In this document: in pieces, positions 37,531 through 55,203 of the stretch
Position numbering within the stretch: position 1 is the first letter of the stretch
Layout: each line of letters starts with the position of its first letter
Source: a bacterium
GTDB lineage: Bacteria; Zhuqueibacterota; Zhuqueibacteria; Residuimicrobiales; Krinioviventaceae
Assembly (NCBI GenBank): GCA_963693055.1
Contig: OY843751.1
Location: forward strand, 2,464,001-2,528,000
DNA length: 64,000 nt
Direction: 5' to 3'
Position numbers and translations under genes: made by a program
The notes under the pieces: model-generated
What the model saw: only the letters and a program-made list of their open reading frames with translations
The model's database searches: none
Told to the model about the DNA's origin: nothing

Positions 37531-38595
37531 TTGTCTATAACAATTTATGATGTTGCCCGCAAGGCAGGTGTAGGCATTGCGACTGTTTCGCGTGCCTTTA
37601 ATGACAGTTCGTTAATTCGAGAGGAAACGAAAAAGCGGATTCTTGAAATAGCGGATGAATTAAATTATCAACCACATGGTTTGGCCCGTGGTTTAGCTCG
37701 CAAACAAACCCATACTATTGCTACAGTTGTTCCCTTCTTTTTTAATTATTTCTTTTTGAATTTGCTTAAAAACGTTCAATATTCACTGTCTAAAAAGAAT
37801 TATGACATGTTTTTATACAGTGTTGATAATCTTGAGCATAAAGAAAACATGTTTGACAAGGTTTTGTATGAAAGAAAATGTGATGGGGTAATGCTTTTTT
37901 CACTTACACTTGATGAAGAATATGCTGAGAAATTTATCAAATCTAATGTACCTGTTATTATTGTAGATAATTATCATTCAAGCCTTGACTCCATTACAAT
38001 CTCTAACAAGAGGGGTGCCAAAGATGCTGTTAATCATTTGATTAGCTTGGGGCACAAAAAAATTGCAATGATTAATGGAAACCTTTCCAGTTTTCCTGCC
38101 AAAGTTAGATTGGAAGGTTTTAAAGAAGCTTTAATGGAAAATAATATTATCAAGAATCCCCGTTACATTATAAATGCTGATCTGGATTTGGGTGAAGATG
38201 GATTTAATGAGATGGCCGGATATCGTGCTATGAAACAATTGGCATCTCTTGGAAAAAACCGACCTACAGCTATATTTATTTCGTCTGATATTCAGGCAAT
38301 TGGGGCCCTTCGTGCTGCTAAAGAAGAGGGAATTAGTGTACCTGATGACTGTGCTATTGTAGGATTTGATGATATTGATTTTGCAAAATATGTTGGCCTT
38401 TCTACTATGCGTCAACCTGTTCATACCATGGCTGAACTTGCCGTGAATCGACTTTTAAGAAGAATTGACAATAAAACCCGTGATAAATTTCAGGTAGAAC
38501 TTTCAGCTGAACTCATTATTCGCGAAAGTTGTGGTGCCCGAAATGTAACGACACACCTTGGTGATATTAGTAGCAACGATGCAATTTTCCTGTAA
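37531..38595 (+). CDS. LacI-family transcriptional regulator
   Basis: TIYDVARKAGVGIATVSRAFN HTH, YQPHGLARGL hinge, IVGFDDI; TTG start after AGGA. Confidence 0.95.
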   Translation: MSITIYDVARKAGVGIATVSRAFNDSSLIREETKKRILEIADELNYQPHGLARGLARKQTHTIATVVPFFFNYFFLNLLKNVQYSLSKKNYDMFLYSVDNLEHKENMFDKVLYERKCDGVMLFSLTLDEEYAEKFIKSNVPVIIVDNYHSSLDSITISNKRGAKDAVNHLISLGHKKIAMINGNLSSFPAKVRLEGFKEALMENNIIKNPRYIINADLDLGEDGFNEMAGYRAMKQLASLGKNRPTAIFISSDIQAIGALRAAKEEGISVPDDCAIVGFDDIDFAKYVGLSTMRQPVHTMAELAVNRLLRRIDNKTRDKFQVELSAELIIRESCGARNVTTHLGDISSNDAIFL

Positions 38596-38609
38596 ACTTG
38601 GATTGTTTT

Positions 38610-40418
38610 ATGAAAAAAAATCTAATTTTCATTGTATTATTTATGTCTGTATCACTTTTTGCTCAAACTCCTTCCATCAATTATAGTGTACCAGAATGGA
38701 GTAAAAACGTCATTTGGTATCAGATTTTCCCTGAACGTTTTTGCAATAGTGATCAAAGTAATGGTCCCTTTTTCCATGATATTTTTGGTTCCTGGCCGCA
38801 TGATACTACAAGTGCCTGGGGACTTTCAAACTGGACTGGTGATTGGTATGCTCTGGAAAGGTGGGAAACTGATGGACAGGGATTTTATCATCATGTTCAA
38901 AGACGCAGGTATGGCGGCGATTTGCAGGGGATTATCGATAAACTCGATTATTTACAGGAACTGGGTATAAATGCCATCTATCTAAATCCTGTGTTTGAAG
39001 CTCCATCTATGCACAAATATGATGCTTCTTCATATCATCACATTGATGATAATTTTGGCCCTGACCCCGAATACGATAGAAAACTCATTGCTACTGAAAT
39101 TCCCCATGATCCTGCAACCTGGAAAATGACATCTGCGGATTCACTGTTTTTTGAACTTGTTAAGCAAGTTCATAACCGGGATATGCGCATTATCATCGAT
39201 GGTGTTTGGAACCACGTTGGTATGACATTCTGGGCATTTAGAGATGTTGTTAAAAATCAGGAATCCTCTTTATATAAAGATTGGTTTATCATTAAAGCTT
39301 TTGATAATCCCGCAACACCCGAAAATGAATTCGATTACAAGGGCTGGTGGGACGTAAGAGAGCTTCCTGAGTTGATGGAAGATGAAAACGGATTTAATCC
39401 TGATTTTTGGCAATATGTTAAAAATTCAGTTTCAAAATGGATGGATCCCAATGGTGATGGAGATCCATCAGATGGCATTGATGGCTGGCGTTTGGATGTT
39501 GCTGCAGAGGTGGGTTTTCCTGTATGGCGCAGATTCAGAGACCATGTTCGTACCATTAATCCTGAAGCGTATTTGTCTGGAGAAATTTGGTTCGATGAGG
39601 GAATTGACAAGTGGCTGCAGGGTGATATTTATGACGCGGTTATGAATTATCGCTTTGCTCAAAGTTGTGTTCGTTTCTTTATGGATACGGAAAAGCCTTT
39701 TGCTTTTTCTCCATCTGAATTTGATGATGCATTGCTCGAAATGAGAAATACTTATCCTCACGATGCTCAATATGTATTACAGAACTTGATGGACAGTCAC
39801 GATACAGACCGTATGCCGTCTATGATTATCAATAACAACCGAAATTATGGTTCTGATCATCGTTTGGTAGATAATCCTGATTATGATGTACGTAAACCCA
39901 ACTCACTTGAACGAGATATCCAAAAGCTGATTGTACTTGTGCAAATGACATACATCGGCGCACCTATGGTTTATTATGGAGATGAAGCGGGAATGTGGGG
40001 TGCTTCTGATCCTGATGAGAGAAAACCCATGTTGTGGAAAGAGTTGAAATATGATGATGAAGCTACGCATCCTTTGGGTAAACCCCGCACTATTGATAAG
40101 AATGTTTTTGATCCCGAATTGTTTGCATACTATCAGAATCTGATCAAAACCCGTTTAAAATATGACGCATTGCGAACAGGTGAATATAAAACGCTGATCA
40201 AAGATGATGATAAAAATCTGTTTATATTTAGTCGTAAAGATTCTAAAGATGAATTTATTATTGTAATGAATAATTCTTTTGATGAGCAAACTGTAAAAAT
40301 TAAAGTCGCTGGTAATTCAGCAAAGGATATAATTACTGGTAAAACTGAGACAATCTTGAATAACGAGTTGTCACTGTTATTAGGTCCAAAACAAGGTATG
40401 CTTTTACATATTCATTAA
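38610..40418 (+). CDS. GH13 alpha-amylase family enzyme (neopullulanase/cyclomaltodextrinase-like), exported
   Basis: Signal peptide; YQIFPERF, GGDLQGI, DGVWNH, GWRLDVA, GEIW, DSHD. Confidence 0.92.
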   Translation: MKKNLIFIVLFMSVSLFAQTPSINYSVPEWSKNVIWYQIFPERFCNSDQSNGPFFHDIFGSWPHDTTSAWGLSNWTGDWYALERWETDGQGFYHHVQRRRYGGDLQGIIDKLDYLQELGINAIYLNPVFEAPSMHKYDASSYHHIDDNFGPDPEYDRKLIATEIPHDPATWKMTSADSLFFELVKQVHNRDMRIIIDGVWNHVGMTFWAFRDVVKNQESSLYKDWFIIKAFDNPATPENEFDYKGWWDVRELPELMEDENGFNPDFWQYVKNSVSKWMDPNGDGDPSDGIDGWRLDVAAEVGFPVWRRFRDHVRTINPEAYLSGEIWFDEGIDKWLQGDIYDAVMNYRFAQSCVRFFMDTEKPFAFSPSEFDDALLEMRNTYPHDAQYVLQNLMDSHDTDRMPSMIINNNRNYGSDHRLVDNPDYDVRKPNSLERDIQKLIVLVQMTYIGAPMVYYGDEAGMWGASDPDERKPMLWKELKYDDEATHPLGKPRTIDKNVFDPELFAYYQNLIKTRLKYDALRTGEYKTLIKDDDKNLFIFSRKDSKDEFIIVMNNSFDEQTVKIKVAGNSAKDIITGKTETILNNELSLLLGPKQGMLLHIH

Positions 40419-40435: not shown

Positions 40436-43400
40436 ATGAAAAAGCTTGAAATTTTATTGGTTTTAATTTTATTCGCACAATTTTCCGGGCTGTATGCTGG
40501 AACTACCGGCAAGATAGCCGGTGTTATTGTTGATGCGAATACCGGTGATGCATTGCCCGGCACCAATGTTATAATTGATGGCTCTCGAATGGGTGCTGCT
40601 ACTGATCTTCAGGGACATTATTCCATTTTAAATGTTCCACCCGGCACATATGTACTTAGAGCTAGTATGATTGGTTACAATGAAACAAAGGTGACTAATG
40701 TTGTCGTTTCCATTGATCTTACCACAGAGATCAATTTTCAGTTATCAGAAACGGTTCTTGATGCCGGTGAAACGGTTACAATCGTTGCAGAACGTCCTCA
40801 GGTTGTTAAAGATTTAACAGCTACAACCGCAATTGTTGGTTCTGAAGAAATGGAAACGCTTCCGGTAACCGAAGTGAGTGAAGCTATCGAGTTGCAAGCT
40901 GGTCTGATCAGAGATGCGGGTGGCGGTTTACATGCCCGTGGCGGACGTTCAGGTGAGGTAAGTTACTGGGTAGATGGTATACCGGTTACCGACGTTTATG
41001 ATGGTGGAACCGTTGTAGATATCAACAAAAATATGGTTCAAGAGCTCCAGGTAGTTACCGGTGCTTTTAATGCTGAATACGGTCAGGCGATGTCTGGTAT
41101 TGTAAATATTGCTACCAAAGATGGTGATAATAATTTCGGAGGAAGTTTTTCAACTTATTTTGGCGATTATCTCAGTAATCACACTGAACAGTTTTCAAAT
41201 ATTGATGAGATCAATCCCGCAGCTATTCGTAATGGAGAATTTAGTCTGCATGGTGCTATTATTAAAGACAAGTTGTATTATTATGTTAATGGACGTGCAA
41301 TTCATTTCGATGGATGGCAGGCAGGACAGCGACGCTTTACTCCACAATCTGTTACCGGCACATTATTTCTAGAAGAAGATTATCTCAGAAATAATGCGCC
41401 TGAATACCTCGAATTTGCCAGAGAATTAGAAGACAATGAATATGGTATTGAATATGTAGTTGGTTCAAATGCTTCCATTGATTCCATGATTATGCCTTAT
41501 ATTTATGGAATGGACATTATCAGTGATCCTGATTCTTTTGCTTATTATTATCAAAATCTTCGTAGTGTTCATGCCGGTGCTAAAGGTGATGGTGAATACG
41601 TTTCCATGAATTGGAATGAAAAACTTTACGGGCAGGTAAAATTGATTTATAATTTGACCCCGTCATTTAAAATCGCATACAATGCTATCTATGATGATGT
41701 TGATTACCAGGATTATGATCAAAATTACTATTTGAATCCTGATGGTAATTTAAAACGATTTAGAACAGGTTTAACCAATATTCTCAAGATTACTCATGTA
41801 CTTAATCAGTCAACTTTTTATGACCTTGGAATTTCCCAGTTCAATAAAGAATATAAACATTATGTTTATGAAGATATGTACGATTCCCGTTATGTGCATC
41901 CCGATATGGGTGAACAACAGCCGTATAGTTTTAAAACCGCAGGTAATGATTTGGCAAATTACAAACGCCAAACCACAACTCAACTTGCCAAATTGGATAT
42001 CACCAGTCAAGTTACCAGCCGTCAGCAGTTAAAAGCTGGTGTTGAATACCGACAGCATAAAGTCTTTATGCGTGATATCTCTCTACGGCCTGTTGATGAA
42101 GATTTTAGTATTGATGTAGTTGACGATGGACCTTATATCCGTACCCGTGTAACTCCTGTTAGTGATATTTACCACAGTACCTATGAACACAAACCCGTAG
42201 AATTTTCTGCATACTTGCAAGACAAGCTTGAATTCAAAAGCATGATTGTTAATGTTGGTGTTCGTATGGATTATTTTGATCCTGATGGTATTGTTTTAAC
42301 AGATGAAACAGATCCCACTATTTACAATCCAATCCGTCCTGAAAATCGCTATCACGACTGGGGTACCGATGGTATTGAAGGTACATATGATGCTGATGGT
42401 TCCGAAGGTAATGGCATTCAGGATGCTGGCGAGCCGGATGTTACTCTTGAAGAACGTCAAAGTTACTGGTATAAAGACACTACCACAAAAATGAATGTCA
42501 GTCCCCGTTTGGGTGTTTCTTTTCCGGTTACTGAACGTGGTGTATTCCATTTTTCTTATGGTCACTTTTTTCAGGTTCCTCGTTTTGAACGTTTATATCA
42601 AAATCCCGACTTTGAACTTGAACAAGGTACAGGTAATATTGGTGTAATTGGAAATTCTGATCTTGAACCTGAGCAAACCGTAAGTGGCGAAGTTGGTTTA
42701 CAACAGCAAATAACGGATGATGTTACCATTGAAATCAATGCTTATTTCAGAGATGTTAGAAATCTGGCTGGTACCCGTGCTGAAGAAATTGAACTTTATG
42801 GTGGTTCTTCCACTTATTCAAAATTTGTCAACAGTGACTTTGGTTTAACAAAGGGATTGACCCTTGCAGTTTCCAAACGTTTTAGTGGCGGTTTGTCTGC
42901 TTCTTTTGACTATACTTTGCAGCAGGCCAAAGGTACCAGCTCTGATCCCGAGCAGGCTAGAAATGCTATTGATGGTGGTGCGCAGCCTGAAGTACAAATG
43001 ACAGCTCTGGATTGGGACCAGTTTCAAACCGTAAATTTTTCATTAAATTATCGCGGTTCAAACTGGGGTGGAAGTGCAATTGGTCAATGGGGTAGTGGAC
43101 TACCTTACACGCCACGAAGTTCTGTAGATATTTCAGAACTTTTGACCAACAGTCAACGCAAACCTTCTTATTCAAATCTTGATGTTCGTGGATATTATGA
43201 TTTTCGTTTTGGAACAACGACTTTGACCTTGTTTGCACGGGTGTTAAACCTGTTTGATACTTTGAACGAGGTGAATGTTTATGATACTACCGGCCGTGCC
43301 GGATTTACACTTGATCAGCGAATTGCTGAAGCAACAAATCCCGATGAAATTATCAACTCTCTGGACCAATGGTTTACAAACCCAACCCATTATTCAGAGC

Positions 43401-43438
43401 CACGTCGTATAGAGTTGGGTGTAACATATACATTTTGA
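40436..43438 (+). CDS. TonB-dependent receptor with N-terminal carboxypeptidase-regulatory-like domain (non-SusC type)
   Basis: GKIAGVIVDANTGDALPGTNV, plug HARGGR...VDGIPV...TGAFNAEYG, GNSDLEPEQT, C-terminal PRRIELGVTYTF. Confidence 0.93.
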   Translation: MKKLEILLVLILFAQFSGLYAGTTGKIAGVIVDANTGDALPGTNVIIDGSRMGAATDLQGHYSILNVPPGTYVLRASMIGYNETKVTNVVVSIDLTTEINFQLSETVLDAGETVTIVAERPQVVKDLTATTAIVGSEEMETLPVTEVSEAIELQAGLIRDAGGGLHARGGRSGEVSYWVDGIPVTDVYDGGTVVDINKNMVQELQVVTGAFNAEYGQAMSGIVNIATKDGDNNFGGSFSTYFGDYLSNHTEQFSNIDEINPAAIRNGEFSLHGAIIKDKLYYYVNGRAIHFDGWQAGQRRFTPQSVTGTLFLEEDYLRNNAPEYLEFARELEDNEYGIEYVVGSNASIDSMIMPYIYGMDIISDPDSFAYYYQNLRSVHAGAKGDGEYVSMNWNEKLYGQVKLIYNLTPSFKIAYNAIYDDVDYQDYDQNYYLNPDGNLKRFRTGLTNILKITHVLNQSTFYDLGISQFNKEYKHYVYEDMYDSRYVHPDMGEQQPYSFKTAGNDLANYKRQTTTQLAKLDITSQVTSRQQLKAGVEYRQHKVFMRDISLRPVDEDFSIDVVDDGPYIRTRVTPVSDIYHSTYEHKPVEFSAYLQDKLEFKSMIVNVGVRMDYFDPDGIVLTDETDPTIYNPIRPENRYHDWGTDGIEGTYDADGSEGNGIQDAGEPDVTLEERQSYWYKDTTTKMNVSPRLGVSFPVTERGVFHFSYGHFFQVPRFERLYQNPDFELEQGTGNIGVIGNSDLEPEQTVSGEVGLQQQITDDVTIEINAYFRDVRNLAGTRAEEIELYGGSSTYSKFVNSDFGLTKGLTLAVSKRFSGGLSASFDYTLQQAKGTSSDPEQARNAIDGGAQPEVQMTALDWDQFQTVNFSLNYRGSNWGGSAIGQWGSGLPYTPRSSVDISELLTNSQRKPSYSNLDVRGYYDFRFGTTTLTLFARVLNLFDTLNEVNVYDTTGRAGFTLDQRIAEATNPDEIINSLDQWFTNPTHYSEPRRIELGVTYTF

Positions 43439-43470: not shown

Positions 43471-46400
43471 ATGAAAAAACTAATTTACTATACTTTTATT
43501 CTGGTTTCAATTGTCCCCTTTTTGATCTATGCCCAAAGCGGACGAGAGTACCGTCGTTCTTCTATTATGCGCGGTAATCTGGTTAAAACTGTTTTCGGCA
43601 ACTGGGGTGTTATTGGGCAGCCTGCGCAAAAAGGTGCGCGTGGTGCATGGATTTATGAAAACAATGGATACATTGGTGATGTGAGTTTGATGGTTGGAGC
43701 TGAAGTAAAATCGGATGATAAAACCTTTCATTCGGTTGTTATCAGCCCGGTTGATCGTCCTACAACTCGTCAGGAATTATCACCAACCGGTAGTTGGTGG
43801 TCATGGGAGCCTGTTGGTGGTTATTTTAATGAGAATCAGGAAGGTATTGCCTTGTATAGCGATCCTGATTCATGGCCATCGCTCTGGCCAGATAAAATGT
43901 CTGATCTCAATGATCCGGGTTGGTCAGGTTCCTGGGATGGATTTTTTGGCAAGGAAACTACCGCATCAGAAGAATCATTTTTTGTTATGGATGATAACAA
44001 TGATACCGAGTTTAATGAAGCATCAAACAATATCTGGAATGTGGATTTTAAACCGGATTCAACCAACCCTTCCAGAAACGGTTTGGGCCTTGAAGTTAAA
44101 GTAAGAGGTATGCAGTGGTCAGATTTTCTTGCTCAGGATTGTATATTTTGGTTATACGAAATTACCAACAATAGCACAACCGATTATGATAAAGTTGTAT
44201 TCGGCATGCTTGTAGGAACTTATGTGGGAGTAACCTCTACAGAAAATTACAGCGAGTATGATGATGACTATTCATTTTTCGATGTTGAAAAAGATTTAAC
44301 CTATACCGGTGATTTTGATGATAATGCACGTCGTAATCCTCGCTGGACGGGTGATGTTGGTGCGGTTGGTTATGCGTTTTTGGAAAGTCCTGGTAATCCT
44401 TTTGATGGAATTGACAATGATGGTGATGCTCAGGAATACCCGAATGTACCTACATCAGCAGCGCTTTTTACTCCAGAAGATTTTCAGGAGAAAATTGTCA
44501 GAGCTGGTGATGAAATTGTTTTAATTGATAACAACTATAATCGTACGGTTGTAACTGTTCCTGCAGAGGAAACCGTTTTTAAAACCCGTGGTGCAGAAAT
44601 AACAATTGTTCCGGGGGTTACAAGACTTTCAGAAGGTAACCTGGTTCTCAAAGATGGTCGTAATGAAGTTAACACCAATGCTTATGATGGTATAGATAAT
44701 GACCTTGATGGATTGATCGATGAAAACTATTATCTGCATTATCGCCAGATTCGTAAAGATCAGAATGATAATATTATTTTTGACAAATTGAATCCTGTTG
44801 CTTATGTAAATTATTTTACCGGGGCTGGTATTGATGATGCTTTGATTGATGAACGTCGTGATGATGGTATTGACAATGACGGTGACTGGAATCCATTGTT
44901 CGATGATGTGGGTGCCGATGGTGTTACAGGAACCAATGATTATGGTGAAGGAGATGGCGTACCCACTTCTGGTGAGCCCAATTTCGATAAAACAGATGTT
45001 GATGAATCTGATCAAATTGGTTTGACAAGTTTTGAATACTTTACACCTGCACGAGAATTTTCAATGGCAGATGATGAAGACTTGTGGGACCGTTTGTCAC
45101 CCGGATTTTTCAAAGTTCCCGAATCTATTGAAAATAATAAACCCACAAAAGGTGAAGATGGTGACTTTATTTATGGTTCAGGATATTTCCCGTTACCTGC
45201 TGGTGCAACCCGTCGTATTTCACTTGCATTGGTTTATGGTGAAGGCGGTGGCCCTGAGGTTGAAATTACCGATTTGTTAAAAAATCGTGAAACCGTGCAG
45301 GAAATTTATGATAATGATTATCGTTTCCCACCTGCACCCAATAAACCCAAGCTGACTGCAATTCCCGGTGATGGTAAAGTTACTTTGCATTGGGACAGAC
45401 TTGCTGAAAAATCCTTTGATCCTGTATTGCAGACTTATGATTTTGAAGGCTATAAAATTTATCGTGCAACCGATTACGAATTTAACGAAGTGTTTAGTAT
45501 TACTGATGCTGACGGAACACCTATCGCTTATGAACCGATTGCACAGTTTGATCTGGATAATGAATATGAAGGTTATTTTAGAGCTGGGCCGGATCTGTTT
45601 CAACAGGGTAGAGGCGCTTCATTTTTCCTTGGTGACAACACAGGATTACAGCATACCTTTGTTGATTCCAGTGTTGAAAATGGTCGGCGTTATTTTTACG
45701 CTTTGGTTGCCTATGACCGGGGAGATGAAGATGTTGATATCTATCCCAAAGAAAATGATAAACGTATTGATATTTTACCCAATGGAGAGATTCGAACATT
45801 TCAAAATACTGCTGTTGTAACGCCCAACGCTGCTGTTTCAGGATATGTTCCTCCTGAAAACAGTGTGCAATTGCAGGCAACACAATCTCCGGTCGGATCA
45901 GGACAAATATATTACAAGGTTATTGATGAACAAAAAGTAACCGGACATGATTATAGATTGGAATTTCTTGATTATTCCAATGACGGTATTGATAATAATA
46001 ATAACTGGACATCTCCTCAGGATGACGTAGGTTCTGATGGTATTGCTGAAACCAATGATCCGGATGGTACTGAATTAAATGGAATCCCTGATCCGGGAGA
46101 ACCCAATCTCGACGAGAATGATGTCGAAGAATTTATCCGTCCTATTACAACCAGTTATTCGGTACGTGATTTAACTGGTATTACAGAGACTTTTTTCTCC
46201 AAAGATACGCTATATGTTTCATTATCAAAAACACACCAGATACCGGAAACCATAAAAATTACAGATGAAGATGGTAATGTTATTCCTGCTGATAAATATT
46301 TAATAAATACCGAGTTTGGTAAAATCAGAGGTGCTAATTCCGGTGATCTGGCTTATGGTACCGGTTACAATATTAGTTACGAATATTATCCGGTTTATAA

Positions 46401-47313
46401 CAGTCCCTACATTCAGGGCAATCCTGTTGAAGATGAAACCAAAGATACAGACAACTTTGACGGTATTCAAATTTATTTCAATAATAAGTGGAAAGTCACG
46501 TTAGACTCTACACTTTCAGGATGGTCAAATCCTCAAAAAGATATAGGCTTTAATATCTTTAAAACTATAAGTTATAATCCTGATGGATCAATTTTTGTTT
46601 TGGGTTATGAAAATATTAGTGATTATCAAATTATTTTCGATGATGATATTGTCGATAGTACGGCAAATTTACCAGAGTACTATTCAACACCACAACCAGT
46701 TAATTTTAGAATAAAAAATGTAACGAATAATCAATTTATTGATTTCATATATCTTGATAATGATAGAAGTAAAGGTATATCATCTCTTGATGAATTATTT
46801 TTTGTCGAAAAAGATTTTAATGGTGAAATTGTTTTTACATGGGATATTACATTTGTTTCAACTCAAGATACCGTATTTAATTATGGTACAGGGGATGTGC
46901 TTGATATCATTCTTAAAAAACCATTTCGTAAAGGCGATACATTTGAATTCTCTGCAGAACAACCTGATATAAGTACTAGTGCCGGCAAAGATCTGCTCAA
47001 GGATATTAAGGTATATCCCAATCCCTATGTTGCAGCATCTACACATGAACGTCCATTACCGCCCGCAATAACAACTGGTCGTGGTGTGCGGGAAGTAACG
47101 TTTACCCATTTACCACTTGATGCCAAGATCCACATTTTTACTTCACGTGGTGAGCACGTTATAACAAAAGAACATGAAGGTTCAATGTTCGATGGAACCA
47201 TTAACTGGGACCTGAAGACAAAAGAAAATCTGGATGTTGCTGCAGGTGTATATTTTTACATTGTTGAATCATCTGTAGGTAAAAAAGAAGGTAAACTGGC
47301 TATTATCAAATAA
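43471..47313 (+). CDS. Large secreted TBDR-associated protein with acidic DGIDND repeats, Fn3-like domain and divergent T9SS-like CTD
   Basis: Signal peptide; DGIDN x4; PPAPNKP...GDGKVTLHWD...FEGYKIYR; C-terminal IKVYPNPY...WDL...AGVYFY...KLAIIK. Confidence 0.82.
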   Translation: MKKLIYYTFILVSIVPFLIYAQSGREYRRSSIMRGNLVKTVFGNWGVIGQPAQKGARGAWIYENNGYIGDVSLMVGAEVKSDDKTFHSVVISPVDRPTTRQELSPTGSWWSWEPVGGYFNENQEGIALYSDPDSWPSLWPDKMSDLNDPGWSGSWDGFFGKETTASEESFFVMDDNNDTEFNEASNNIWNVDFKPDSTNPSRNGLGLEVKVRGMQWSDFLAQDCIFWLYEITNNSTTDYDKVVFGMLVGTYVGVTSTENYSEYDDDYSFFDVEKDLTYTGDFDDNARRNPRWTGDVGAVGYAFLESPGNPFDGIDNDGDAQEYPNVPTSAALFTPEDFQEKIVRAGDEIVLIDNNYNRTVVTVPAEETVFKTRGAEITIVPGVTRLSEGNLVLKDGRNEVNTNAYDGIDNDLDGLIDENYYLHYRQIRKDQNDNIIFDKLNPVAYVNYFTGAGIDDALIDERRDDGIDNDGDWNPLFDDVGADGVTGTNDYGEGDGVPTSGEPNFDKTDVDESDQIGLTSFEYFTPAREFSMADDEDLWDRLSPGFFKVPESIENNKPTKGEDGDFIYGSGYFPLPAGATRRISLALVYGEGGGPEVEITDLLKNRETVQEIYDNDYRFPPAPNKPKLTAIPGDGKVTLHWDRLAEKSFDPVLQTYDFEGYKIYRATDYEFNEVFSITDADGTPIAYEPIAQFDLDNEYEGYFRAGPDLFQQGRGASFFLGDNTGLQHTFVDSSVENGRRYFYALVAYDRGDEDVDIYPKENDKRIDILPNGEIRTFQNTAVVTPNAAVSGYVPPENSVQLQATQSPVGSGQIYYKVIDEQKVTGHDYRLEFLDYSNDGIDNNNNWTSPQDDVGSDGIAETNDPDGTELNGIPDPGEPNLDENDVEEFIRPITTSYSVRDLTGITETFFSKDTLYVSLSKTHQIPETIKITDEDGNVIPADKYLINTEFGKIRGANSGDLAYGTGYNISYEYYPVYNSPYIQGNPVEDETKDTDNFDGIQIYFNNKWKVTLDSTLSGWSNPQKDIGFNIFKTISYNPDGSIFVLGYENISDYQIIFDDDIVDSTANLPEYYSTPQPVNFRIKNVTNNQFIDFIYLDNDRSKGISSLDELFFVEKDFNGEIVFTWDITFVSTQDTVFNYGTGDVLDIILKKPFRKGDTFEFSAEQPDISTSAGKDLLKDIKVYPNPYVAASTHERPLPPAITTGRGVREVTFTHLPLDAKIHIFTSRGEHVITKEHEGSMFDGTINWDLKTKENLDVAAGVYFYIVESSVGKKEGKLAIIK

Positions 47314-47339: not shown

Positions 47340-48365
47340 ATGCTTAATAAAGAGTATTTTAAAATAATATGGGTTGCGATTTTATTACTCGCTTTGGCAG
47401 GTGCCGGCAGCGCACAGGACAAGGTGGGTACAACCTCGGCACCGTTTTTAGGTATCAGTATTGCTCCCCGGGCAACAGCAATGGGTGGAGCTTTTACTGC
47501 AGTTGCAGATGACGCAACGGCACTTTATTATAATCCTGGTGCAATCTCTCAAATGTCTTCATCGCAGGCACTTGTTTCTCATACCGAATGGCTGGTGGGC
47601 ACAGGTTTAAACTGGGTTGGATTTGTTTTAAACCTTGATGGTTCGAATGCAATTGGTGTGAGTTTTACAAACCTGGACTATGGTGAAGAAGAAGTGACAA
47701 CAGAGTCACAACAGGAAGGAACCGGTGAAATGTGGTCCGCTTCTGATATCTCTATAGGTTTATCGTATGCGCGAAGCTTTACAGACCGTTTTTCAATTGG
47801 TGGTAGTGTTAAATATATTGAACAAAAGATTTGGCATGAAAAATCAACTGCTTTTGCCGCAGATGTGGGTTTGATTTTTACCACTGCTTTTAATGATATG
47901 AAATTGGGTATGAGTATTTCCAATTTTGGTAATGAAATGCGTATGGAAGGTGAAGATCTGTTACGCAAGATTGATATTGATGATGAAACAATTGGACACA
48001 ATGAAACTATTGTAGGAAATCTCAAAACAGATAAATGGCCTTTACCATTATTCTTTCGTGTTGGATTATCTATGTATGTTTTGGAAACAACATTCACCAA
48101 AATGCTGGTTGCGGTTGATGCTGTTCGCCCCACAGATAATAGTGAAATTATTAATGTCGGTGGAGAGTTTTCAGTATATGATATTTTGTTTTTGCGTGCA
48201 GGTTACAAATCTCTATTCAGAGATGAAAGTGAAGAAGGCCTTACATTTGGTATGGGTTTAAATATTTCCCAGGTAGGAGGAGTTGCCTGGAAATTTGATT
48301 ATACTTATGCTGATTTTGGGATTTTAGACTATATCCAAATGTATTCACTGAGTGTCAGCTTTTAG
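47340..48365 (+). CDS. PorV/PorQ-family (UPF0164) outer-membrane beta-barrel
   Basis: FLGISIAPRATAMGGAFTAVADDATALYYNPGA, LRAGY, terminal aromatic residue (SVSF). Confidence 0.9.
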   Translation: MLNKEYFKIIWVAILLLALAGAGSAQDKVGTTSAPFLGISIAPRATAMGGAFTAVADDATALYYNPGAISQMSSSQALVSHTEWLVGTGLNWVGFVLNLDGSNAIGVSFTNLDYGEEEVTTESQQEGTGEMWSASDISIGLSYARSFTDRFSIGGSVKYIEQKIWHEKSTAFAADVGLIFTTAFNDMKLGMSISNFGNEMRMEGEDLLRKIDIDDETIGHNETIVGNLKTDKWPLPLFFRVGLSMYVLETTFTKMLVAVDAVRPTDNSEIINVGGEFSVYDILFLRAGYKSLFRDESEEGLTFGMGLNISQVGGVAWKFDYTYADFGILDYIQMYSLSVSF

Positions 48366-48476: not shown

Positions 48477-50534
48477 ATGAAATTAAAGTCATTTTTAGTA
48501 TTTGCACTAGCTTTTATGCTTTTTACCAGTGCAGCTCAGGCTGTTCAGGTAACTTTTCTTGCCAATACCGCTGCAGTTCCAGATACTATGCAGGAAACAT
48601 CAACAGTTCAAATGCGTGGTGATACCGCACCCTTGACCTGGGATGGTGCATCCGATGCAATTTTTGAAAACATTGGTGGTGATTACTGGCAAGTTACTCT
48701 CGACTTTGTAGCGGGAGACACAGTAAATTATAAATTCTACACCCATGCAAATGATACCGTTTATGCTGGTGTTGAATGGGAACATGCTGGTTGGGAAGCT
48801 GATGTTGCAACCGGTAATCGTCAATTGATCGTTGGTGATGCTGATACGACTTTGCCTCTTCAGTTTGTAAATGGATGGCAAGGTGGCGTTGAACAATATG
48901 AAGCTCCTTATACAACAAACGACTCTTCTTTTGTATTTTACGTACGCGTAAACATGCAGGGATGGGATGATTTTAATCCTGCTACTCATGTTGTTGGTCT
49001 TCGTGGTTCTAATACTGATGACTGGGGACAAACCGGTGAATTGTCCTGGGGACCCACTTATCCGTTGACTCAGGAAGGCAATCATCCTAATGGTGGCAGC
49101 CAACAGTACAATGGTACCAATTTTTACAGTGGTGCAGTTCATGTACCTAACAAATATGCCGGCAAAGGTGTACAATTCAAAGTTGTAGTTCATAATGCTG
49201 GTGCTGACCTGGGTGAAGACTGGGGTAACATGGTTTATAATCCCAGCCTCGAAATGAACATTCCGGTTACTGGTGCAGATACCACTATTCATTGGTTCTG
49301 GTATGATAATTTACGTCCGGTTTCAGTAGATCATCAGGATACTGTGATTGTTACTTTTAATGCAGACATGTCAGATGCTATCCTGAATAAAGGTTTCTCA
49401 CATGGTGATACCGTTCAGGTTCGTTCCGGTTACTATGGAACATCTGCTGAAACCCGTACAAAACAAATGTTCCGTCAGGGTTTTAGCAATGTTTATAGTG
49501 CAACAGATACAATTGTTACCACACTGGGTGAACGCTTGACTTATCAATACTATACAATTATTGATGGTGTTGAATATCGTGAAGTTTATTACAATTTCTA
49601 TTACGATGGCGATAATCTGGGTGAAGCTGAACGACGTGTTTATGAATCTCTTGAAGCAAATGAAGTAACTATTGCCGATGATCTTGCAAGTGCAAGTGAA
49701 GTACATCGTATGCCATTGTTCCGCAATGTTAGTGTTGTTCAGCAAGAAGTATTGCTGACATTAACTTGTGATATTCGTCCAGCCATTTACCAGGTATTGG
49801 CCGGTGATACACTTTTTGATATCCAGTCTACCCGTGAAGTAAACGTTGCAGACAGCATTCTTGCCTGGGGTGTTGCTGTTAACGGTCCATTAAGTGGTGG
49901 CTGGGGTACCTGGGGCATTAACCTCCAGGACGAAGAAGGTAGAAATGAAGCTGTAAGAAGAATGTTTGATGATGGTACCAATGGTGATGCTGTTGCCGGT
50001 GACAGCATCTTTACAATTCAATATACATTCTATCCTGACAGTGGTGATGTTGTTGGTCAGGAATTTAAATTCGGTATTGGCGGTGGAGACAATGAAGGTG
50101 GTTTTGGAAATAACCATATCGAAAATATTGATGATTCTAATCCTAATGCTACAATCAATGCTCAATTTGGTAGCATTGACCCCTTGTTCTACTCTGCATG
50201 GGATTTTGATAATCAAGGTCCGGCAACCGCAATTGAAGATTTGAATGTAACTCCATTGACTTTTGAATTGGCTCAAAACTATCCGAACCCTTTTAACCCC
50301 ACTACTCATATTCAGTATCAATTGCCAAAAGCAAGTGATGTAAAACTGACTGTATTTAATGTTTTGGGTAAAGAGATCGTAACTCTTGTTAACCAAAAAC
50401 AAAATGCAGGCACTTATCAGTTGACATGGGATGGAACAAATAATGCCGGTTTGCAGGTAAGCTCTGGTGTTTATTTCTACAAAATTGAAGCTGGTGATTT
50501 TACGAAAATTAATAAAATGATGTTCATTAAATAA
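48477..50534 (+). CDS. T9SS-sorted non-catalytic protein with ~4 tandem CBM20-like/Ig domains
   Basis: Signal peptide; recurring VTF..N/D-M...V.xRG...W...Y/F-K-F pattern; MFDDGTNGDAVAGDSIFT motif; NYPNPFNP CTD. Confidence 0.78.
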   Translation: MKLKSFLVFALAFMLFTSAAQAVQVTFLANTAAVPDTMQETSTVQMRGDTAPLTWDGASDAIFENIGGDYWQVTLDFVAGDTVNYKFYTHANDTVYAGVEWEHAGWEADVATGNRQLIVGDADTTLPLQFVNGWQGGVEQYEAPYTTNDSSFVFYVRVNMQGWDDFNPATHVVGLRGSNTDDWGQTGELSWGPTYPLTQEGNHPNGGSQQYNGTNFYSGAVHVPNKYAGKGVQFKVVVHNAGADLGEDWGNMVYNPSLEMNIPVTGADTTIHWFWYDNLRPVSVDHQDTVIVTFNADMSDAILNKGFSHGDTVQVRSGYYGTSAETRTKQMFRQGFSNVYSATDTIVTTLGERLTYQYYTIIDGVEYREVYYNFYYDGDNLGEAERRVYESLEANEVTIADDLASASEVHRMPLFRNVSVVQQEVLLTLTCDIRPAIYQVLAGDTLFDIQSTREVNVADSILAWGVAVNGPLSGGWGTWGINLQDEEGRNEAVRRMFDDGTNGDAVAGDSIFTIQYTFYPDSGDVVGQEFKFGIGGGDNEGGFGNNHIENIDDSNPNATINAQFGSIDPLFYSAWDFDNQGPATAIEDLNVTPLTFELAQNYPNPFNPTTHIQYQLPKASDVKLTVFNVLGKEIVTLVNQKQNAGTYQLTWDGTNNAGLQVSSGVYFYKIEAGDFTKINKMMFIK

Positions 50535-50540
50535 TTTTTT

Positions 50541-50573
50541 AAGGGACCGGTGTAATAACCGGCCCCTTTTTTT
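50541..50573 (+). terminator. Rho-independent terminator
   Basis: AAGGGACCGGT...ACCGGCCCCTT followed by a T-run. Confidence 0.8.
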
Positions 50574-50593
50574 ATCTTATGGGTTATTTTAAT

Positions 50594-53362
50594 ATGCGAA
50601 TCTTTTACTTTATTTTATTTTCTGTTACTTTATCATTTGGTCAGGCCCTTACTTGGGATCCTCTTTTTCCAACCGATAACGATACAATAACAATTACCTA
50701 TAACGCAAATGAAGGTAATAAAGCCCTTGAAGGCGTATCACCTATATGGGCACATACTGGTGTTATAACTGATAAAAGTCCTAATCCCAATTATTGGCTA
50801 TATACAATTGCCGAGTGGGAGACTAATTTGCCAAAAGCCCAAATGACCAATATTGGTACTGACTCTTGGCAAATTCGTTTTCATGTGCGTTCTTTTTATG
50901 GTGTACCCGCAGGTGAAACCATACAACAATTGGCTTTTGTATTTCGAAATGCCAGTGGCACCAAAGTTGGAAAAACAGCAGACAATCAGGACTTTTTTAT
51001 CCCCATATATCAGCAAGGTGTTAATATATCCCTTGTAAACCCCACTACAAATACATTTATCGCTGAAATGGGTGATGAAATACCCATCATCACAAAGACC
51101 ACATCTGCAATTAAGCAGGAATTGTTTTTAAATAATCAGTTATTAACCGAAACAACTGATGATAGCCTTTACTATCTTTTTACTCCTCAGGATTATGGAT
51201 TTTATCAATTCACTGCAATTGCTACAGACGCCCAAAACAATACCGAGCAAACTGAATTTACAATTGTTGTAAATACCCCGGTAAATATTGCAGACTTGCC
51301 AAGCGGAGTTCGTGATGGTATTAATCGTACCGGAAGTAATTCAGCTACATTGGTTTTGACCGCTCCTCTTAAAGAATTTGTTTATGTCATTGGTTCATTT
51401 AATAATTGGGAAATGAGTCAGGATTATTATATGAATAAAACCCCGGATGGTAATCGTTATTGGTTAGAGATTGACGGTCTGGATCCGGAGACAGAATACA
51501 CCTTTCAATACCTGGTTGATGGCAGCATTCGAATTGCAGATCCGTATTCCGATAAAATTTTGGATCCTACTCATGATAAAAACATCACGGATGATACCTA
51601 TCCTGACCTGACACCATATCCCATTGGTGAAACCACTGAAGCGATAACTGCTTTTAAAATCAATCAGGATGAATTTACTTTTACTGCATCAGATTATGAA
51701 AAACCACAGATAAAAAATCTTGTTATATACGAGTTATTAATCAGGGATTTTATTCAAGAACATGATTATAAAACGTTAACTGATTCTTTAGCATATTTCA
51801 AACGCCTGGGTATTAATGCAATTGAATTGATGCCTATAAATGAATTTGAAGGGAATGAGAGCTGGGGTTACAATCCGTCTTTTTATTTTGCTCCCGATAA
51901 ATATTATGGTCCTGCTAATGATTTGAAAACATTGATTGATGAAGCACATAAACTTGGAATTGCAATAATTCAGGATATTGTATTAAATCATGCATATGGT
52001 CAGTGTCCATGGGTAAGACTTTACGGTGATCAAATGGACCAAAATCCATGGTTTAATGAAAAATCCCCCAACACATCTTATGCGTGGGGATATGATTTTA
52101 ATCATGAGAGTGAATACACTAGAGCATTTGTAGATAGTGTTTTAAGCTACTGGATGACAGAGTTTAAAGTAGATGGCTTTCGTTTTGATTTTACCAAAGG
52201 TCTTACAAATACCCCTGGAGACGGTTGGGAGTATGATCCTGCCCGTATAACCATTTTAAAACGCATTGCTGATCATGTCTGGTCTGTTGATTCTACAGCA
52301 TATGTAATACTTGAACACTTTGCCGCAAATAGTGAAGAAAAGGAATTGTCAGCTTATGGTATGATGTTGTGGGGAAATATAAATACGCCTTTTACCCAAT
52401 CTGCAATGGGGTATACCAACGATTCAAATATTTCCGGAATTTCTGCATCATACAGAGGATGGACCGAACATCATTTGGTTGGTTATATGGAAAGTCATGA
52501 TGAAGAACGAATGATGTACAAGAACCTGCAATGGGGTAATTCTGCAGGAACCTATCACATTTACGATCTTCAAACTGCGCTTGAACGTGTTCAATTATCA
52601 GCTGCTTTCTTTTTAACTGTTCCCGGTCCCAAAATGATTTGGCAATTTGGAGAATTGGGTTATGATTATTCTATTGATTATAATAATCGTGTAGGCAACA
52701 AGCCCATTCGGTGGGATTACTACCAGGATGCTGACAGACGTCAACTCTATGATGTTTTTGCCGCTCTTGCACACTTTAGAAAATTAAAAGCATTTCAGGA
52801 AGGTTCGTTTAATTTTAATCTGAGTACTTTTTTAAGAACTGTTCGTATATCACATGATAGTATGAATACGGTCATTATTGGTAATTTTAATGTAACTGAA
52901 AGCTATATAATACCCAATTTTCAACATACAGGCTTGTGGTATGATTACCTTGATGGTAATCATATCGATATAAGTCAAACACAGCAGGCAATACTGCTGC
53001 GGCCCGGTGAATTTCATGTTTTTACCGATGTACAATTGGAAAAACCGTTTATAACTAAAATTGATGAAAATGAACTTGCACCCGTTACTTTCAAATTGTA
53101 CGACAACCATCCGAATCCATTTAACGCATCAACGCGAATCGATTTTGAATTGGAAAAATCAGATCATATCTGCCTTGATGTATTCAATATTACAGGACAA
53201 CATATTGTAACCCTTGTTGACAACCAACTTGAACAGGGAAGGCATTCATTTGTCTGGAATGGTAAAGACTCTAATGATAATATTATGAGTACAGGTGTAT
53301 ATCTTTATGTAATCGCTTCAAGTACCACTCGATACAGTAAAAAGATGCTGTTGTTAAAGTAA
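50594..53362 (+). CDS. T9SS-sorted GH13 alpha-amylase family enzyme with N-terminal CBM/CBM48 domains
   Basis: Signal peptide; IADPYS, IYELLIRDF, SWGYNP, DIVLNH, GFRFDF, LEHF, SHDEER; NHPNPFN CTD. Confidence 0.92.
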   Translation: MRIFYFILFSVTLSFGQALTWDPLFPTDNDTITITYNANEGNKALEGVSPIWAHTGVITDKSPNPNYWLYTIAEWETNLPKAQMTNIGTDSWQIRFHVRSFYGVPAGETIQQLAFVFRNASGTKVGKTADNQDFFIPIYQQGVNISLVNPTTNTFIAEMGDEIPIITKTTSAIKQELFLNNQLLTETTDDSLYYLFTPQDYGFYQFTAIATDAQNNTEQTEFTIVVNTPVNIADLPSGVRDGINRTGSNSATLVLTAPLKEFVYVIGSFNNWEMSQDYYMNKTPDGNRYWLEIDGLDPETEYTFQYLVDGSIRIADPYSDKILDPTHDKNITDDTYPDLTPYPIGETTEAITAFKINQDEFTFTASDYEKPQIKNLVIYELLIRDFIQEHDYKTLTDSLAYFKRLGINAIELMPINEFEGNESWGYNPSFYFAPDKYYGPANDLKTLIDEAHKLGIAIIQDIVLNHAYGQCPWVRLYGDQMDQNPWFNEKSPNTSYAWGYDFNHESEYTRAFVDSVLSYWMTEFKVDGFRFDFTKGLTNTPGDGWEYDPARITILKRIADHVWSVDSTAYVILEHFAANSEEKELSAYGMMLWGNINTPFTQSAMGYTNDSNISGISASYRGWTEHHLVGYMESHDEERMMYKNLQWGNSAGTYHIYDLQTALERVQLSAAFFLTVPGPKMIWQFGELGYDYSIDYNNRVGNKPIRWDYYQDADRRQLYDVFAALAHFRKLKAFQEGSFNFNLSTFLRTVRISHDSMNTVIIGNFNVTESYIIPNFQHTGLWYDYLDGNHIDISQTQQAILLRPGEFHVFTDVQLEKPFITKIDENELAPVTFKLYDNHPNPFNASTRIDFELEKSDHICLDVFNITGQHIVTLVDNQLEQGRHSFVWNGKDSNDNIMSTGVYLYVIASSTTRYSKKMLLLK

Positions 53363-53391
53363 AGTTTAACTTAACAAAACAGGAGATAAAC

Positions 53392-55203
53392 GTGACAGTA
53401 TTTGATTATTCCATTATTTTTGTATATCTCTCTTCAATTATCCTGGTTGGGCTTTTGGCCCAAAAACGTGCAAAGCAGGGTATAGATTCTTATTTCCTGG
53501 GTGACAGATCATTACCCTGGTGGGCTTTGGGTGCTTCGGGAATGGCATCAAATATGGATGTTAGTGGTACAATGCTGAATACAGCTTTTATTTTTGCACT
53601 GGGAGCTACCGGTTTTTTTATCGAGATTCGCGGTGGTGTTACTTTGTTAATGGCTTTTCTTATGATTTTTATGGGAAAATGGAACCGCCGTGCTCATGTT
53701 ATGACCCTTGCCGAGTGGATGCACCTACGTTTTGGTAAAGGTAAAGAGGGAGATATTGCACGTTTAATTGCTGCTATTTCTTCAATTATTATGACTATAG
53801 CAATGATTACCTATTTTGCAATAGGTGCGGGAAAATTTATTGGCGAATTTTTAGGTATACCTTCATTTCTCGGTCTTTCTCCTGAATTTTGGGCTGCAAC
53901 ACTCATGATCACTTTGGCTATGATTTATACGGTTCTAAGTGGATTATATGGTGTTGTTGCCACGGATGTTTTTCAGGGATTTATAATTTTTGGCACTATA
54001 ATTTATATTTGCTTTCTGGCAATTACCAAATATGCGCTTCCTGAGAGTTTTATCATCTCTGTACCTATGAAAGATGGCACCTTTATGGCTATGGAAACAA
54101 CGCGAAATGCATGGACCAGTATCATCCCCTCGTGGAGTCTTGACCTCCCGGAGGCCAGTGCCTATTCAATTTATAACCTCCTGGGAATAGCTATAATCTT
54201 TTATTTATTTAAAGTAACAATTGAAGGTAGCGGTGGTACTGGTAACTATATGCTACAGCGTTATATGGCAGCTAAAAGCGATCGTGATACCGGTTTGCTC
54301 TCACTTTTTTGGACTTTTTTACTTTCTTTCCGTTGGCCATTTATTGCAGCCATTGCAATGATGGGCGTTGCATTTAGCACCCAGGGTGGAACTGCACTAG
54401 ATCCTGAAAAGATTTTACCAACAGTTATTAATGAACTGGTTCCTGTTGGAATCAAAGGTTTGTTGATTGCCGGCCTTATGGCTGCAGCCATGTCTACTTT
54501 TGACTCTACTGTGAATGCCGGTGCGGCATATTGGGTCAAGGATATTTATCAGGCTTATCTCAATCCCAAAGCCAGTAAACAACAACTCATGCTGCACAGT
54601 CGCTGGTCATCTATTATTATTGTATTGTTTGGACTGATTTTTACAATCTTCATCAAGAATATTAATGAAATCTGGGGTTGGATTACTATGGGAATTGGTG
54701 CCGGTCTATTAATTCCCATGCTCATGCGCTGGTACTGGTGGCGGCTTAATGGTTATGGCTTTGCCTGGGGTACAATTGGTGGTATGGTTGCGGCATTTAT
54801 TCAAAAAGGATTTTTCCCTGATATACCTGAATATATTGCATTTACTGTTGCATCAGGGGCATCTTTGCTTGCACTCATAATTGGTACCTATTTAACACCT
54901 GCAACAGACAAAAAAGTTTTGATGGAATTCTACAAACGTACCCGTCCTTTTGGATTCTGGAAGCCTGTTACACAGGATATTCCTGAAAAGACAATGACGG
55001 CTATCAATTCAGAGAATACAAGAGATCGAATTGCTACATTTTTTGCCGTTCCCTGGCAGCTTGTATTGTTCCTGTTTATGATGATGATTGTTATGGGGCG
55101 TTTTGATAATTTGTTATGGTTATCCATTTTATTGGTTTTTCTATCAATCGGCTTATATCATTTCTGGTTTAAGCACTTGTCCACAGAAGTCAAGATGGAT
55201 TAA
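53392..55203 (+). CDS. Sodium:solute symporter (likely sugar)
   Basis: YFLGDRSLPWW, SGLYGVVATDVFQ, QRYMAAK, AAAMSTFDS; GTG start after AGGAG. Confidence 0.92.
   Translation: MTVFDYSIIFVYLSSIILVGLLAQKRAKQGIDSYFLGDRSLPWWALGASGMASNMDVSGTMLNTAFIFALGATGFFIEIRGGVTLLMAFLMIFMGKWNRRAHVMTLAEWMHLRFGKGKEGDIARLIAAISSIIMTIAMITYFAIGAGKFIGEFLGIPSFLGLSPEFWAATLMITLAMIYTVLSGLYGVVATDVFQGFIIFGTIIYICFLAITKYALPESFIISVPMKDGTFMAMETTRNAWTSIIPSWSLDLPEASAYSIYNLLGIAIIFYLFKVTIEGSGGTGNYMLQRYMAAKSDRDTGLLSLFWTFLLSFRWPFIAAIAMMGVAFSTQGGTALDPEKILPTVINELVPVGIKGLLIAGLMAAAMSTFDSTVNAGAAYWVKDIYQAYLNPKASKQQLMLHSRWSSIIIVLFGLIFTIFIKNINEIWGWITMGIGAGLLIPMLMRWYWWRLNGYGFAWGTIGGMVAAFIQKGFFPDIPEYIAFTVASGASLLALIIGTYLTPATDKKVLMEFYKRTRPFGFWKPVTQDIPEKTMTAINSENTRDRIATFFAVPWQLVLFLFMMMIVMGRFDNLLWLSILLVFLSIGLYHFWFKHLSTEVKMD

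Follow-up and report, generated by a model that had tools for sequence, protein, structure and literature searches.

How might a bacterium without a SusD-like lipoprotein capture an alpha-glucan at its surface and pass it to a TonB-dependent receptor (TBDR)? The question is raised by an eight-gene locus of an uncultured KSB1-type bacterium, at positions 37531-55203 of a 64,000-nt window (contig OY843751.1, 2,464,001-2,528,000, forward strand; the window is this whole stretch, and positions are counted within it unless a contig or locus handle is given). We asked whether the 1280-aa secreted protein encoded next to the receptor, here called the partner, could take the place of SusD. Receptor, partner and a PorV-family barrel are encoded by a conserved triplet of genes, and we consider it somewhat probable that the partner of this operon, exported by the cell's type IX secretion system (T9SS), with its tail on the barrel, is the sugar-capturing accessory of the receptor, doing the job that SusD does in Bacteroides. 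Scans of the locus proteins with Pfam and NCBIfam models gave the families below; all eight genes that an earlier note on this DNA had read from the sequence were recovered in the same order, all on the + strand and with intergenic gaps of 2-111 nt.

37531-38595 (+): LacI-family repressor, 354 aa (PF00356 and PF13377)
38598-40418 (+): GH13 neopullulanase/cyclomaltodextrinase-like protein, 606 aa, with a signal peptide and no C-terminal domain (CTD) (Alpha-amylase match; 1JF5)
40436-43438 (+): TBDR, 1000 aa (CarbopepD_reg_2 and Plug)
42356-42436 (+): acidic DxGxDG...GEP motif of the receptor, residues 641-667, common to the partner
43471-47313 (+): secreted partner, 1280 aa (predicted structure; weak tail matches only)
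46984-47310 (+): CTD of the partner, about residues 1172-1280, of a class distinct from type A
47340-48365 (+): PorV/PorQ-family barrel, 341 aa (NF033709, 204.5 bits, cut-off 90)
48477-50534 (+): non-catalytic T9SS type-A cargo with carbohydrate-binding modules (CBM), 685 aa (Pfam/NCBIfam, predicted structure)
50579-53362 (+): GH13 alpha-amylase with a type-A-like CTD, 927 aa, near GH13_47
53392-55203 (+): sodium:solute symporter, 603 aa (PF00474, SSF)

The receptor, partner and barrel genes form a conserved triplet

We asked how constant the three central genes are in other genomes. Three sets of loci were compared: 76 GTDB loci, taken from the best 80 of 458 confirmed stretches; 80 metagenome loci; and 100 stretches from KSB1 genomes, drawn from 150 listed places of ∼1,000 matches, which are short, include paralogues and in some cases repeat GTDB loci. 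The loci of the three sets are kin and their counts are not independent. In the GTDB set the receptor lay directly upstream of the partner in all 70 loci with at least 400 nt of upstream sequence, and the barrel was found downstream in 65 of the 66 loci with at least 600 nt on that side (adjacent in 62; the single miss is L054). The metagenome loci gave a similar picture (receptor upstream in 59/59, barrel downstream in 56/58), and in the KSB1 stretches a receptor was present within 1.7 kb upstream of 95 of 97 partners and a barrel in 82 of 92, directly downstream in 59. The GTDB loci come from metagenome-assembled genomes (MAGs) labelled KSB1, Marinimicrobia, Calditrichaceae, Ignavibacteria, Gemmatimonadota and Bacteroidetes. 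A triplet that is not conserved, which the earlier note named as grounds for giving up its proposal, is thus not what we observed: the set is conserved across several phyla. Partner homologues are present in 139 of the 151 genomes of the phylum, the family comprises 1,008 clusters at 50% identity (E up to 1e-10), and several of the named close homologues are from KSB1.

In the genome itself, a single 6.54-Mb contig rated 100% complete, the receptor-partner-barrel set is present 12 times, in three gene orders. The partners span 685-1280 aa, and those of the 11 other sets gave no Pfam match at E 0.001. One set stands beside GH28/GH43 genes, and for most of them CTD cargoes or regulators are encoded nearby. 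Starch- and pectin-type loci share one partner architecture. Pairwise distances among the paralogues were correlated between receptor and barrel (rho 0.78), receptor and partner tail (0.60), receptor and partner body (0.60) and barrel and partner body (0.60), each with p 0.0003, the floor of 3,000 permutations; among orthologues the receptor-barrel value was 0.83. With p at or below 0.004 for every pair of distances, the co-phylogeny check proposed in the earlier note came out in favour of the triplet, as did co-occurrence.

Four of the 12 cassettes cluster in this region (G000:C1:2441256-2466433 and 2543480-2550049): the one described here; one of LacI, receptor, barrel and a 1212-aa partner just upstream of the window, trailed by a type-A CTD protein that is the first gene of the window (343-2433, +); and two more within ∼60 kb. 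Elsewhere, an SMP-30/gluconolactonase-family gene is inserted between partner and barrel (L207:7692-8762 and L206:826-1866; by position also in L041 and L042), and at L163:3-12772 a partner gene ends just upstream of the lacI of a full cassette, which suggests tandem duplication of closely related alpha-glucan cassettes.

The receptor lacks SusC signatures and the genome lacks SusD

The receptor has an N-terminal carboxypeptidase-regulatory-like domain, a TonB-box-like segment (ETVTIVA, residues 112-118), a plug (PF07715) and a barrel predicted from sequence. The TonB-box-like segment is kept in the 16 orthologous receptors listed, out of 46. Profile matches of the receptor include Cir, YncD, FepA and SusC, and it has the hallmarks of a TonB-dependent transporter, namely a TonB-box-like motif, a plug and a C-terminal barrel ending in an aromatic residue, with TonB encoded in the genome. 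On the SusC/RagA model TIGR04056 it scored 59.6 bits against a cut-off of 368.25, over its N-terminal part only, and none of the 56 matches to this model in the genome passed the cut-off. The SusD models PF07980 and PF12771 found nothing in the complete genome while the Bacteroides control was positive both times; no SusD Pfam family occurs among the locus proteins, and the signal regions of the secreted locus proteins contain no lipobox cysteine. Both absences claimed in the earlier note, that of SusC signatures and that of a SusD-like lipoprotein, are borne out.

A SusD-like match was found in 1 of 36 other genomes of the order; taken with the matches across the phylum that are weighed below, "SusD-less" describes this genome and almost the whole of its order, but not the phylum. 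Mutual exclusion of partner and SusD across the phylum was considered and rejected, as many genomes have both SusD-like matches and partner homologues. Two copies of the acidic DxGxDG...GEP motif are found in the partner and one in the receptor; as a required latch between the two proteins it was also rejected, being present in just 6 of 46 orthologous receptors. One further receptor of the same class, 829 aa long (G000:C1:212341-214830, -), has neither partner nor barrel. Two predicted lipoproteins follow it, a possible lipid-anchored alternative, and comparison with this one orphan gave no clear receptor signature specific to the partnered copies.

The partner tail is likely held by the locus barrel

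We asked how the partner could be kept at the surface. Its tail reads VYPNPY and has weak matches only: 26.2 bits on CHU_C (cut-off 27), no better than the score of a type-A cargo, and 23 bits on residues 666-748 of the PorZ model. The T9SS type A models TIGR04183 and PF18962 gave no match at E 0.01, and a type-A profile built from this genome scored the partner at 21 bits, against 148 and 109 for the two cargoes of the locus. When the 250 CTD-like tails of the genome were sorted, 14 preferred the partner-type profile and 236 the type-A profile, a split that is circular for the 12 partners from which the former was built. With a profile made solely from the orthologues of other genomes, the 12 partners ranked 1-9 and 11-13, a 1398-aa protein ranked 10 and the PorZ of the genome 14, ahead of all type-A tails. 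The divergence of this CTD, as the earlier note had described it, is therefore real, and it belongs to a separate, PorZ-like class: judged by sequence, the tail resembles that of PorZ more than type A or type B. A type B reading was dropped, given the CHU_C score below cut-off and a neighbouring barrel without a PorP/SprF Pfam match at E 0.01.

The barrel passes neither the PorV model NF033710 (80.1 bits, cut-off 250) nor the PorQ model NF033711 (109.2 bits, cut-off 220), and it matches Flavobacterium johnsoniae PorV (6H3I) at E 7e-6. In a tree of 22 PorV-family matches of the genome, the 12 triplet barrels fall on one side of a branch from the 10 other family members (support 83/87, not starred). 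The genes expected of a T9SS host are present, namely SprA, two copies of PorU, PorZ and PorV-family genes, along with 12 TonB_C matches over cut-off; GldM, the sole motor component searched for, gave no match in a search that had no positive control. The two tandem PorU sortase genes (G000:C1:6251525-6259890, +) have near-identical scores and identical tails, and three PorU-like genes lie elsewhere.

From its tail class, its linkage and the precedent of PorZ and PorQ, the partner tail is likely held at the surface by the locus barrel. PorV-family genes also lie directly downstream of large atypical-tail proteins (493-3157 aa), with no receptor, at six further sites, so that cognate pairing of cargo and barrel looks general in this genome:

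G000:C1:3292239-3297017, receptor-less cargo-barrel site
G000:C1:4294942-4300802, receptor-less cargo-barrel site
G000:C1:5256418-5263920, receptor-less cargo-barrel site
G000:C1:5994833-6006332, receptor-less cargo-barrel site
G000:C1:6146637-6153236, receptor-less cargo-barrel site
G000:C1:6301281-6304664, receptor-less cargo-barrel site

The partner body is a predicted beta-supersandwich without a catalytic barrel

The partner starts with a type I signal peptide, followed by a beta-supersandwich with acidic Dx[DN]xDG insertions (residues 23-620), an FnIII-like part (∼620-800, from motifs and weak Foldseek matches), a variable beta region (800-1170) and the PorZ-like CTD. A model of residues 23-1170, built with 137 sequences, reached pLDDT 88.5 and pTM 0.80 and is nearly all beta by DSSP. 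Structural comparison of residues 23-620 with VIA gave the supersandwich domains of dextran dextrinase, GH94 phosphorylases and GH15 glucoamylase at Z 19.1-17.9 (root-mean-square deviation (rmsd) 3.0-3.5, 231-263 residues aligned, 7-10% identity; the best with rmsd 3.1 over 254), and the model contains no helical (alpha/alpha)6 barrel and no triosephosphate isomerase (TIM) catalytic barrel. Searches of the PDB by single sequence and by profile gave nothing at E 1, Foldseek with the whole partner gave weak immunoglobulin (Ig)/FnIII matches only, and the ESM Atlas search with residues 23-620 returned unnamed clusters only. A predicted supersandwich without a catalytic barrel fits a carbohydrate-binding protein; it would be compatible with catalysis too. 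The stand-alone enzyme that the earlier note had named as an outcome against it is made less likely by this predicted fold and by the receptor directly upstream in 95 of 97 KSB1 cases.

The locus serves alpha-glucan use

What is the substrate? The closest solved structure to the CTD-less GH13 protein is alpha-amylase II (1JF5, E 2e-87), and its catalytic motifs are present (D300, E329 and D402). It is likely periplasmic, with a role that may resemble that of SusA. The CTD-bearing GH13 protein, likely a surface enzyme, matches 8XX9 (E 1.6e-169), 8XXA, which is Rhodothermus RmGH13_47A (E 1.5e-168), and 8DGE, which is BoGH13ASus of Bacteroides ovatus (E 5e-111); its motifs are intact (D537, E579 and D641). 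In both enzymes we take these residues to have the catalytic roles usual for GH13. Papers are cited here for the parts of their text that were available, and one of them lists RmGH13_47A and BoGH13ASus as the two named members of subfamily GH13_47 (PMC11239784). By full-domain similarity and an intact triad, rather than by a CAZy subfamily model, the CTD-bearing enzyme fits GH13_47.

The 685-aa cargo was modelled at pLDDT 83.6. Domain 1 is CBM20-like (Z 12.4, rmsd 2.1, 93 aligned), domains 2 and 3 have weaker CBM41-like Ig matches (Z 8.3 and 7.3), and a conserved domain with a choice-of-anchor X motif precedes the CTD; Foldseek with the whole cargo gave weak Ig/FnIII matches only. The earlier description of a multi-CBM protein thus stands firmly for the first domain and less so for the other two. 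A homologue of this cargo lies downstream of the barrel in 50 of 56 GTDB loci. Of the 31 related loci that extend for at least 6 kb to either side, 23 have a GH13 homologue and 13 a symporter homologue; L046, one of the eight without GH13, has a cargo with a strong CBM_20 match. The symporter may provide sugar uptake across the inner membrane. Both cargoes carry type-A-like tails and would probably use the general PorV/PorU route, not the locus barrel. Co-located carbohydrate-active enzymes, a regulator and an inner-membrane transporter are all found here, as in SusC/SusD polysaccharide utilisation loci (PULs). The alpha-glucan role claimed in the earlier note is well supported by the pair of GH13 enzymes, by the CBM20-like cargo and by a LacI-type operator that is conserved (see below).

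Does the partner act on the receptor?

We propose the following sequence of events. The GH13_47-like amylase and the CBM20-like cargo would leave by the general type-A route and cut or hold starch or glycogen at the surface, a step that homology makes almost certain. The partner would pass SprA and stay uncleaved on the locus barrel, as tail class, linkage and the precedents of PorZ-PorQ and SprB-SprF make very probable. Its beta-supersandwich would bind maltodextrins and present them to the receptor; given the one-to-one pairing of partner and receptor, we regard this step as fairly probable. Import driven by TonB, hydrolysis by the periplasmic CTD-less GH13, uptake by the symporter and derepression at the operator would follow. 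That the partner directly caps the receptor as a lid we suggest only tentatively. Covariation between receptor and partner did not exceed its null: in mean-field direct-coupling analysis of 155 paired rows (effective number ∼115), which gave plausible pairs within each protein, the best receptor-partner pair (S975-S235, z 12.9) was matched by 1 of 12 clade-preserving shuffles (maximum 13.0), and in another covariance score clade signal prevailed.

Several observations weigh against the partner as the receptor's SusD-like accessory. SusD-like matches occur in 57 of the phylum's 151 genomes, and in many of these 57 partner homologues are present too; the 829-aa orphan receptor stands alone. A shared fold gives no function by itself, and no sugar-binding site was located in the partner. 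The weakest correlation among the paralogues is that of barrel and tail (rho 0.37, p 0.004), and block duplication could by itself make neighbouring genes diverge together. At L278:3857-7156 (G047:C45) lies a 1100-aa homologue (37% identity across 849 aligned positions) with neither receptor nor barrel alongside, which shows that a partner body may occur where there is no receptor (1 of 97); this homologue ends in a type-A tail, and a type-A tail without a barrel fits the pairing of tail and barrel, which makes anchoring by the barrel likely. Finally, tandem receptor-partner pairs with fewer barrels than pairs occur at L232, L240 (G100:C27) and L274 (G118:C11), which suggests that one barrel can serve several partners. 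The "dedicated" barrel of the earlier note therefore stands insofar as a barrel follows the partner in 65 of 66 GTDB loci, and falls insofar as tandem pairs in two other KSB1 genomes, G100 and G118, share one barrel gene: it is not strictly dedicated. In these same arrays each receptor keeps its own partner, so receptor and partner are the fixed unit; for a lid on the receptor this genetic argument is the best one.

Could the barrel anchor the partner without placing it on the receptor? The partner would then be a free SusE/F-like glycan-binding or scaffold protein, and the receptor would import lidless, as proteobacterial receptors do. Anchoring has precedent and sequence support, unlike a position of the partner on the receptor. 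The partner is also large, acidic (10.6% Asp) and variable in its middle region, and L278 keeps its body without a receptor. A free partner does not sit easily, however, with the tandem arrays that keep one partner per receptor while the barrel is shared, with a partner size class that tracks the receptor clade among the 12 paralogues, or with a receptor-partner pair that is constant (70/70) while accessory cargoes vary (50/56), and we consider it unlikely.

A lower probability still goes to an unrecognised surface enzyme, tethered to the barrel, whose supersandwich is itself catalytic in the manner of mutarotases, lyases or GH174. Mutarotase-like chains and a GH174 fucanase do appear at Z 12-13.5, and across 155 large-type partners the acidic residues E168, D175, D265, D266 and E305 show 99-100% conservation. 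The best matches, however, are of the GH15/GH94 type (Z 17-19), in which the supersandwich domain is non-catalytic, and the (alpha/alpha)6 or TIM barrel is missing from the model; moreover, the residues common to the 12 paralogues are mostly Gly, Pro and Tyr of the FnIII-like domain, and one architecture is found in both starch- and pectin-type loci. Such an enzyme is thus quite improbable. PorF is a T9SS component with a proposed role in export or assembly, and the receptor-like protein and barrel could, by analogy, be the partner's own private route of export or assembly, in a set that imports nothing. The receptor-barrel correlation is the tightest of all, in paralogues and orthologues alike, and the GldM search, which lacked a positive control, was negative. 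Yet the TonB-box-like segment and plug are conserved, SprA is present, and a periplasmic GH13 and an inner-membrane symporter need imported oligosaccharide, for which the operon has no other receptor; we hold a private export route to be very improbable. The partner as sugar-capturing accessory of the receptor remains the reading that we prefer.

Operon signals and other genes of the window

The following signals are predicted in and around the operon:

37448-37476 (+): sigma-70-like promoter at the operon head, TTGACA-17-TAATAT with an extended -10
37491-37504 (no strand): palindromic LacI-type operator TGGAAGCGCTTCCA, putative in function
50541-50574 (+): hairpin and U-tract between the CBM cargo and GH13-CTD genes
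55222-55257 (+): intrinsic-terminator-like hairpin and U-tract at the operon end

The promoter scored 10/12, tied for best among 85 sites, a total close to the shuffle mean of 71.5; such sites are no commoner than in shuffles, so its support comes from its position 55 nt upstream of lacI. TGGAAGCGCTTCCA is the sole 14-mer of its pattern in the genome. Of its 12-bp core, 32 copies were counted, spread over 26 of 156 related loci, where 0.42 would be expected; most lie 1.1-1.2 kb upstream of the receptor, i.e. just ahead of lacI. The internal hairpin (-16.4 kcal/mol, z -3.9, none of 200 shuffles as stable) may be a terminator or an mRNA-stabilising stem. The hairpin downstream of the symporter (-16.6 kcal/mol, z -4.7, again none of 200) makes it likely that the operon ends at 55203, in line with the boundary set in the earlier note. 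Past it, at 55391-58882 (+), a second sodium:solute symporter and a ribulokinase, over cut-off, are likely a separate arabinose unit.

Other genes lie upstream of the locus. Two tandem 1850-aa proteins (3963-9518 and 9639-15242, +) in a low-GC stretch (∼0.30) combine peptidase C10, a beta-helix and a type-A CTD. At 16741-18816 (+) a [FeFe]-hydrogenase-like domain of the sensory type is fused to a histidine kinase, and the genes downstream of it may encode a putative membrane hydrogenase-like complex. A 266-aa secreted protein (31673-32473, +) has motifs that recall class D beta-lactamases, its candidate family. Three tandem predicted lipoproteins of 148-167 aa (32521-33931, +) have a common GC...CC...C-x-C cysteine pattern.

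Significance

PUL prediction leans on susC/susD pairs, and this reliance leaves glycan uptake largely invisible in abundant uncultured phyla of marine, sediment and digester habitats. A conserved three-gene marker together with the neighbouring enzymes makes the substrates of those phyla predictable. If the partner does serve the receptor, the triplet would mark substrates as susC/susD pairs do, with a dozen copies per genome of different specificities; it would also give a role to many unexplained PorV paralogues and connect nutrient import directly with type IX secretion. More tentatively even than capping itself, we suggest that phyla of the FCB (Fibrobacteres-Chlorobi-Bacteroidetes) group outside classical Bacteroidota may have a second, independent utilisome, a three-part outer-membrane complex of a TBDR with a T9SS-delivered supersandwich lid clamped by its tail to a PorV-family barrel, in which KSB1, Marinimicrobia, Calditrichota and Ignavibacteria would have their chief machinery for polymer uptake. 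This locus is a good test case, with a clear substrate, a conserved operator and homologous loci in MAGs from groups with cultured representatives (Calditrichaceae and Ignavibacteria).

Comparison with known systems

How does the module relate to systems already described? Like the Sus system and utilisomes of Bacteroides, the locus is a regulated operon with a TonB-dependent importer, a strictly adjacent partner, a surface amylase, a starch-binding protein and a periplasmic GH13; both systems have many paralogues in a genome, with enzymes that differ between the copies, and the amylase is near BoGH13ASus. The locus receptor, in contrast to SusC, is under the TIGR04056 cut-off. SusD is a lipoprotein with a mainly helical fold containing tetratricopeptide repeats, whereas the partner has no lipobox, is nearly all beta and more than twice the size of SusD, and ends in a T9SS-type tail. 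The barrel as third gene of the unit also differs from Sus, as do accessory proteins with CTDs in place of lipid anchors. The regulator of Sus is SusR, in place of which this operon has LacI.

In Porphyromonas gingivalis the tail of PorZ is retained, and PorQ holds the protein at the cell surface (PMC5562754; PMC11285876). The PorZ-PorQ/PorU-PorV attachment complex likewise joins a CTD protein to a PorV-family barrel; the partner tail groups with the PorZ of the genome, and of the two barrel models that of PorQ fits the locus barrel better (109 bits, against 80 for PorV). The partner body, however, is no relative of PorZ (23 bits against a cut-off of 260), the genome's own PorZ and PorU lie elsewhere, and the locus pair is tied to a TBDR and to nutrient loci rather than to lipopolysaccharide attachment. 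Type B CTD cargoes are held by cognate PorP/SprF proteins, with some shuttle sharing (PMC9143113; PMC12618676). SprB-SprF and PG1035-PorP resemble the locus in side-by-side cargo and barrel genes, specific pairing and some sharing of shuttles; they differ in that the locus barrel belongs to PorV_fam with no PorP/SprF match and the tail is under the CHU_C cut-off, and in the available parts of the same two papers the known cargoes are either adhesins or proteins without an assigned role, and no link to a receptor is mentioned.

A similar published arrangement may be the xylan locus Rmar_1070-1073 of Rhodothermus marinus, where a receptor, a hypothetical protein with a Por tail, a hypothetical protein and a second Por-tail hypothetical follow LacI and CTD enzymes (PMC6987092). 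The order appears to be that of our locus, a likeness drawn from the published gene table alone and not from sequence; the available text assigns no PorV and proposes no unit. SprA and SusCD have been noted across FCB phyla (PMC12611786), and Caldithrix abyssi, which grows on starch, has been described in a paper whose available text does not name the module (PMC5317091). The terms PorV and T9SS are absent from the accessible part of a 2026 review of glycoside transporters (PMC13543919), as are TonB, SusD and PorV from that of a KSB1 genomics paper (PMC9012183). No paper describing a TBDR with a PorV paralogue and a CTD partner was found in a literature search that left most subscription journals and supplements outside. 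The module is real, conserved and apparently undescribed: like SusC/SusD in its proposed logic and like PorZ-PorQ in its probable anchoring, it is a member of neither.

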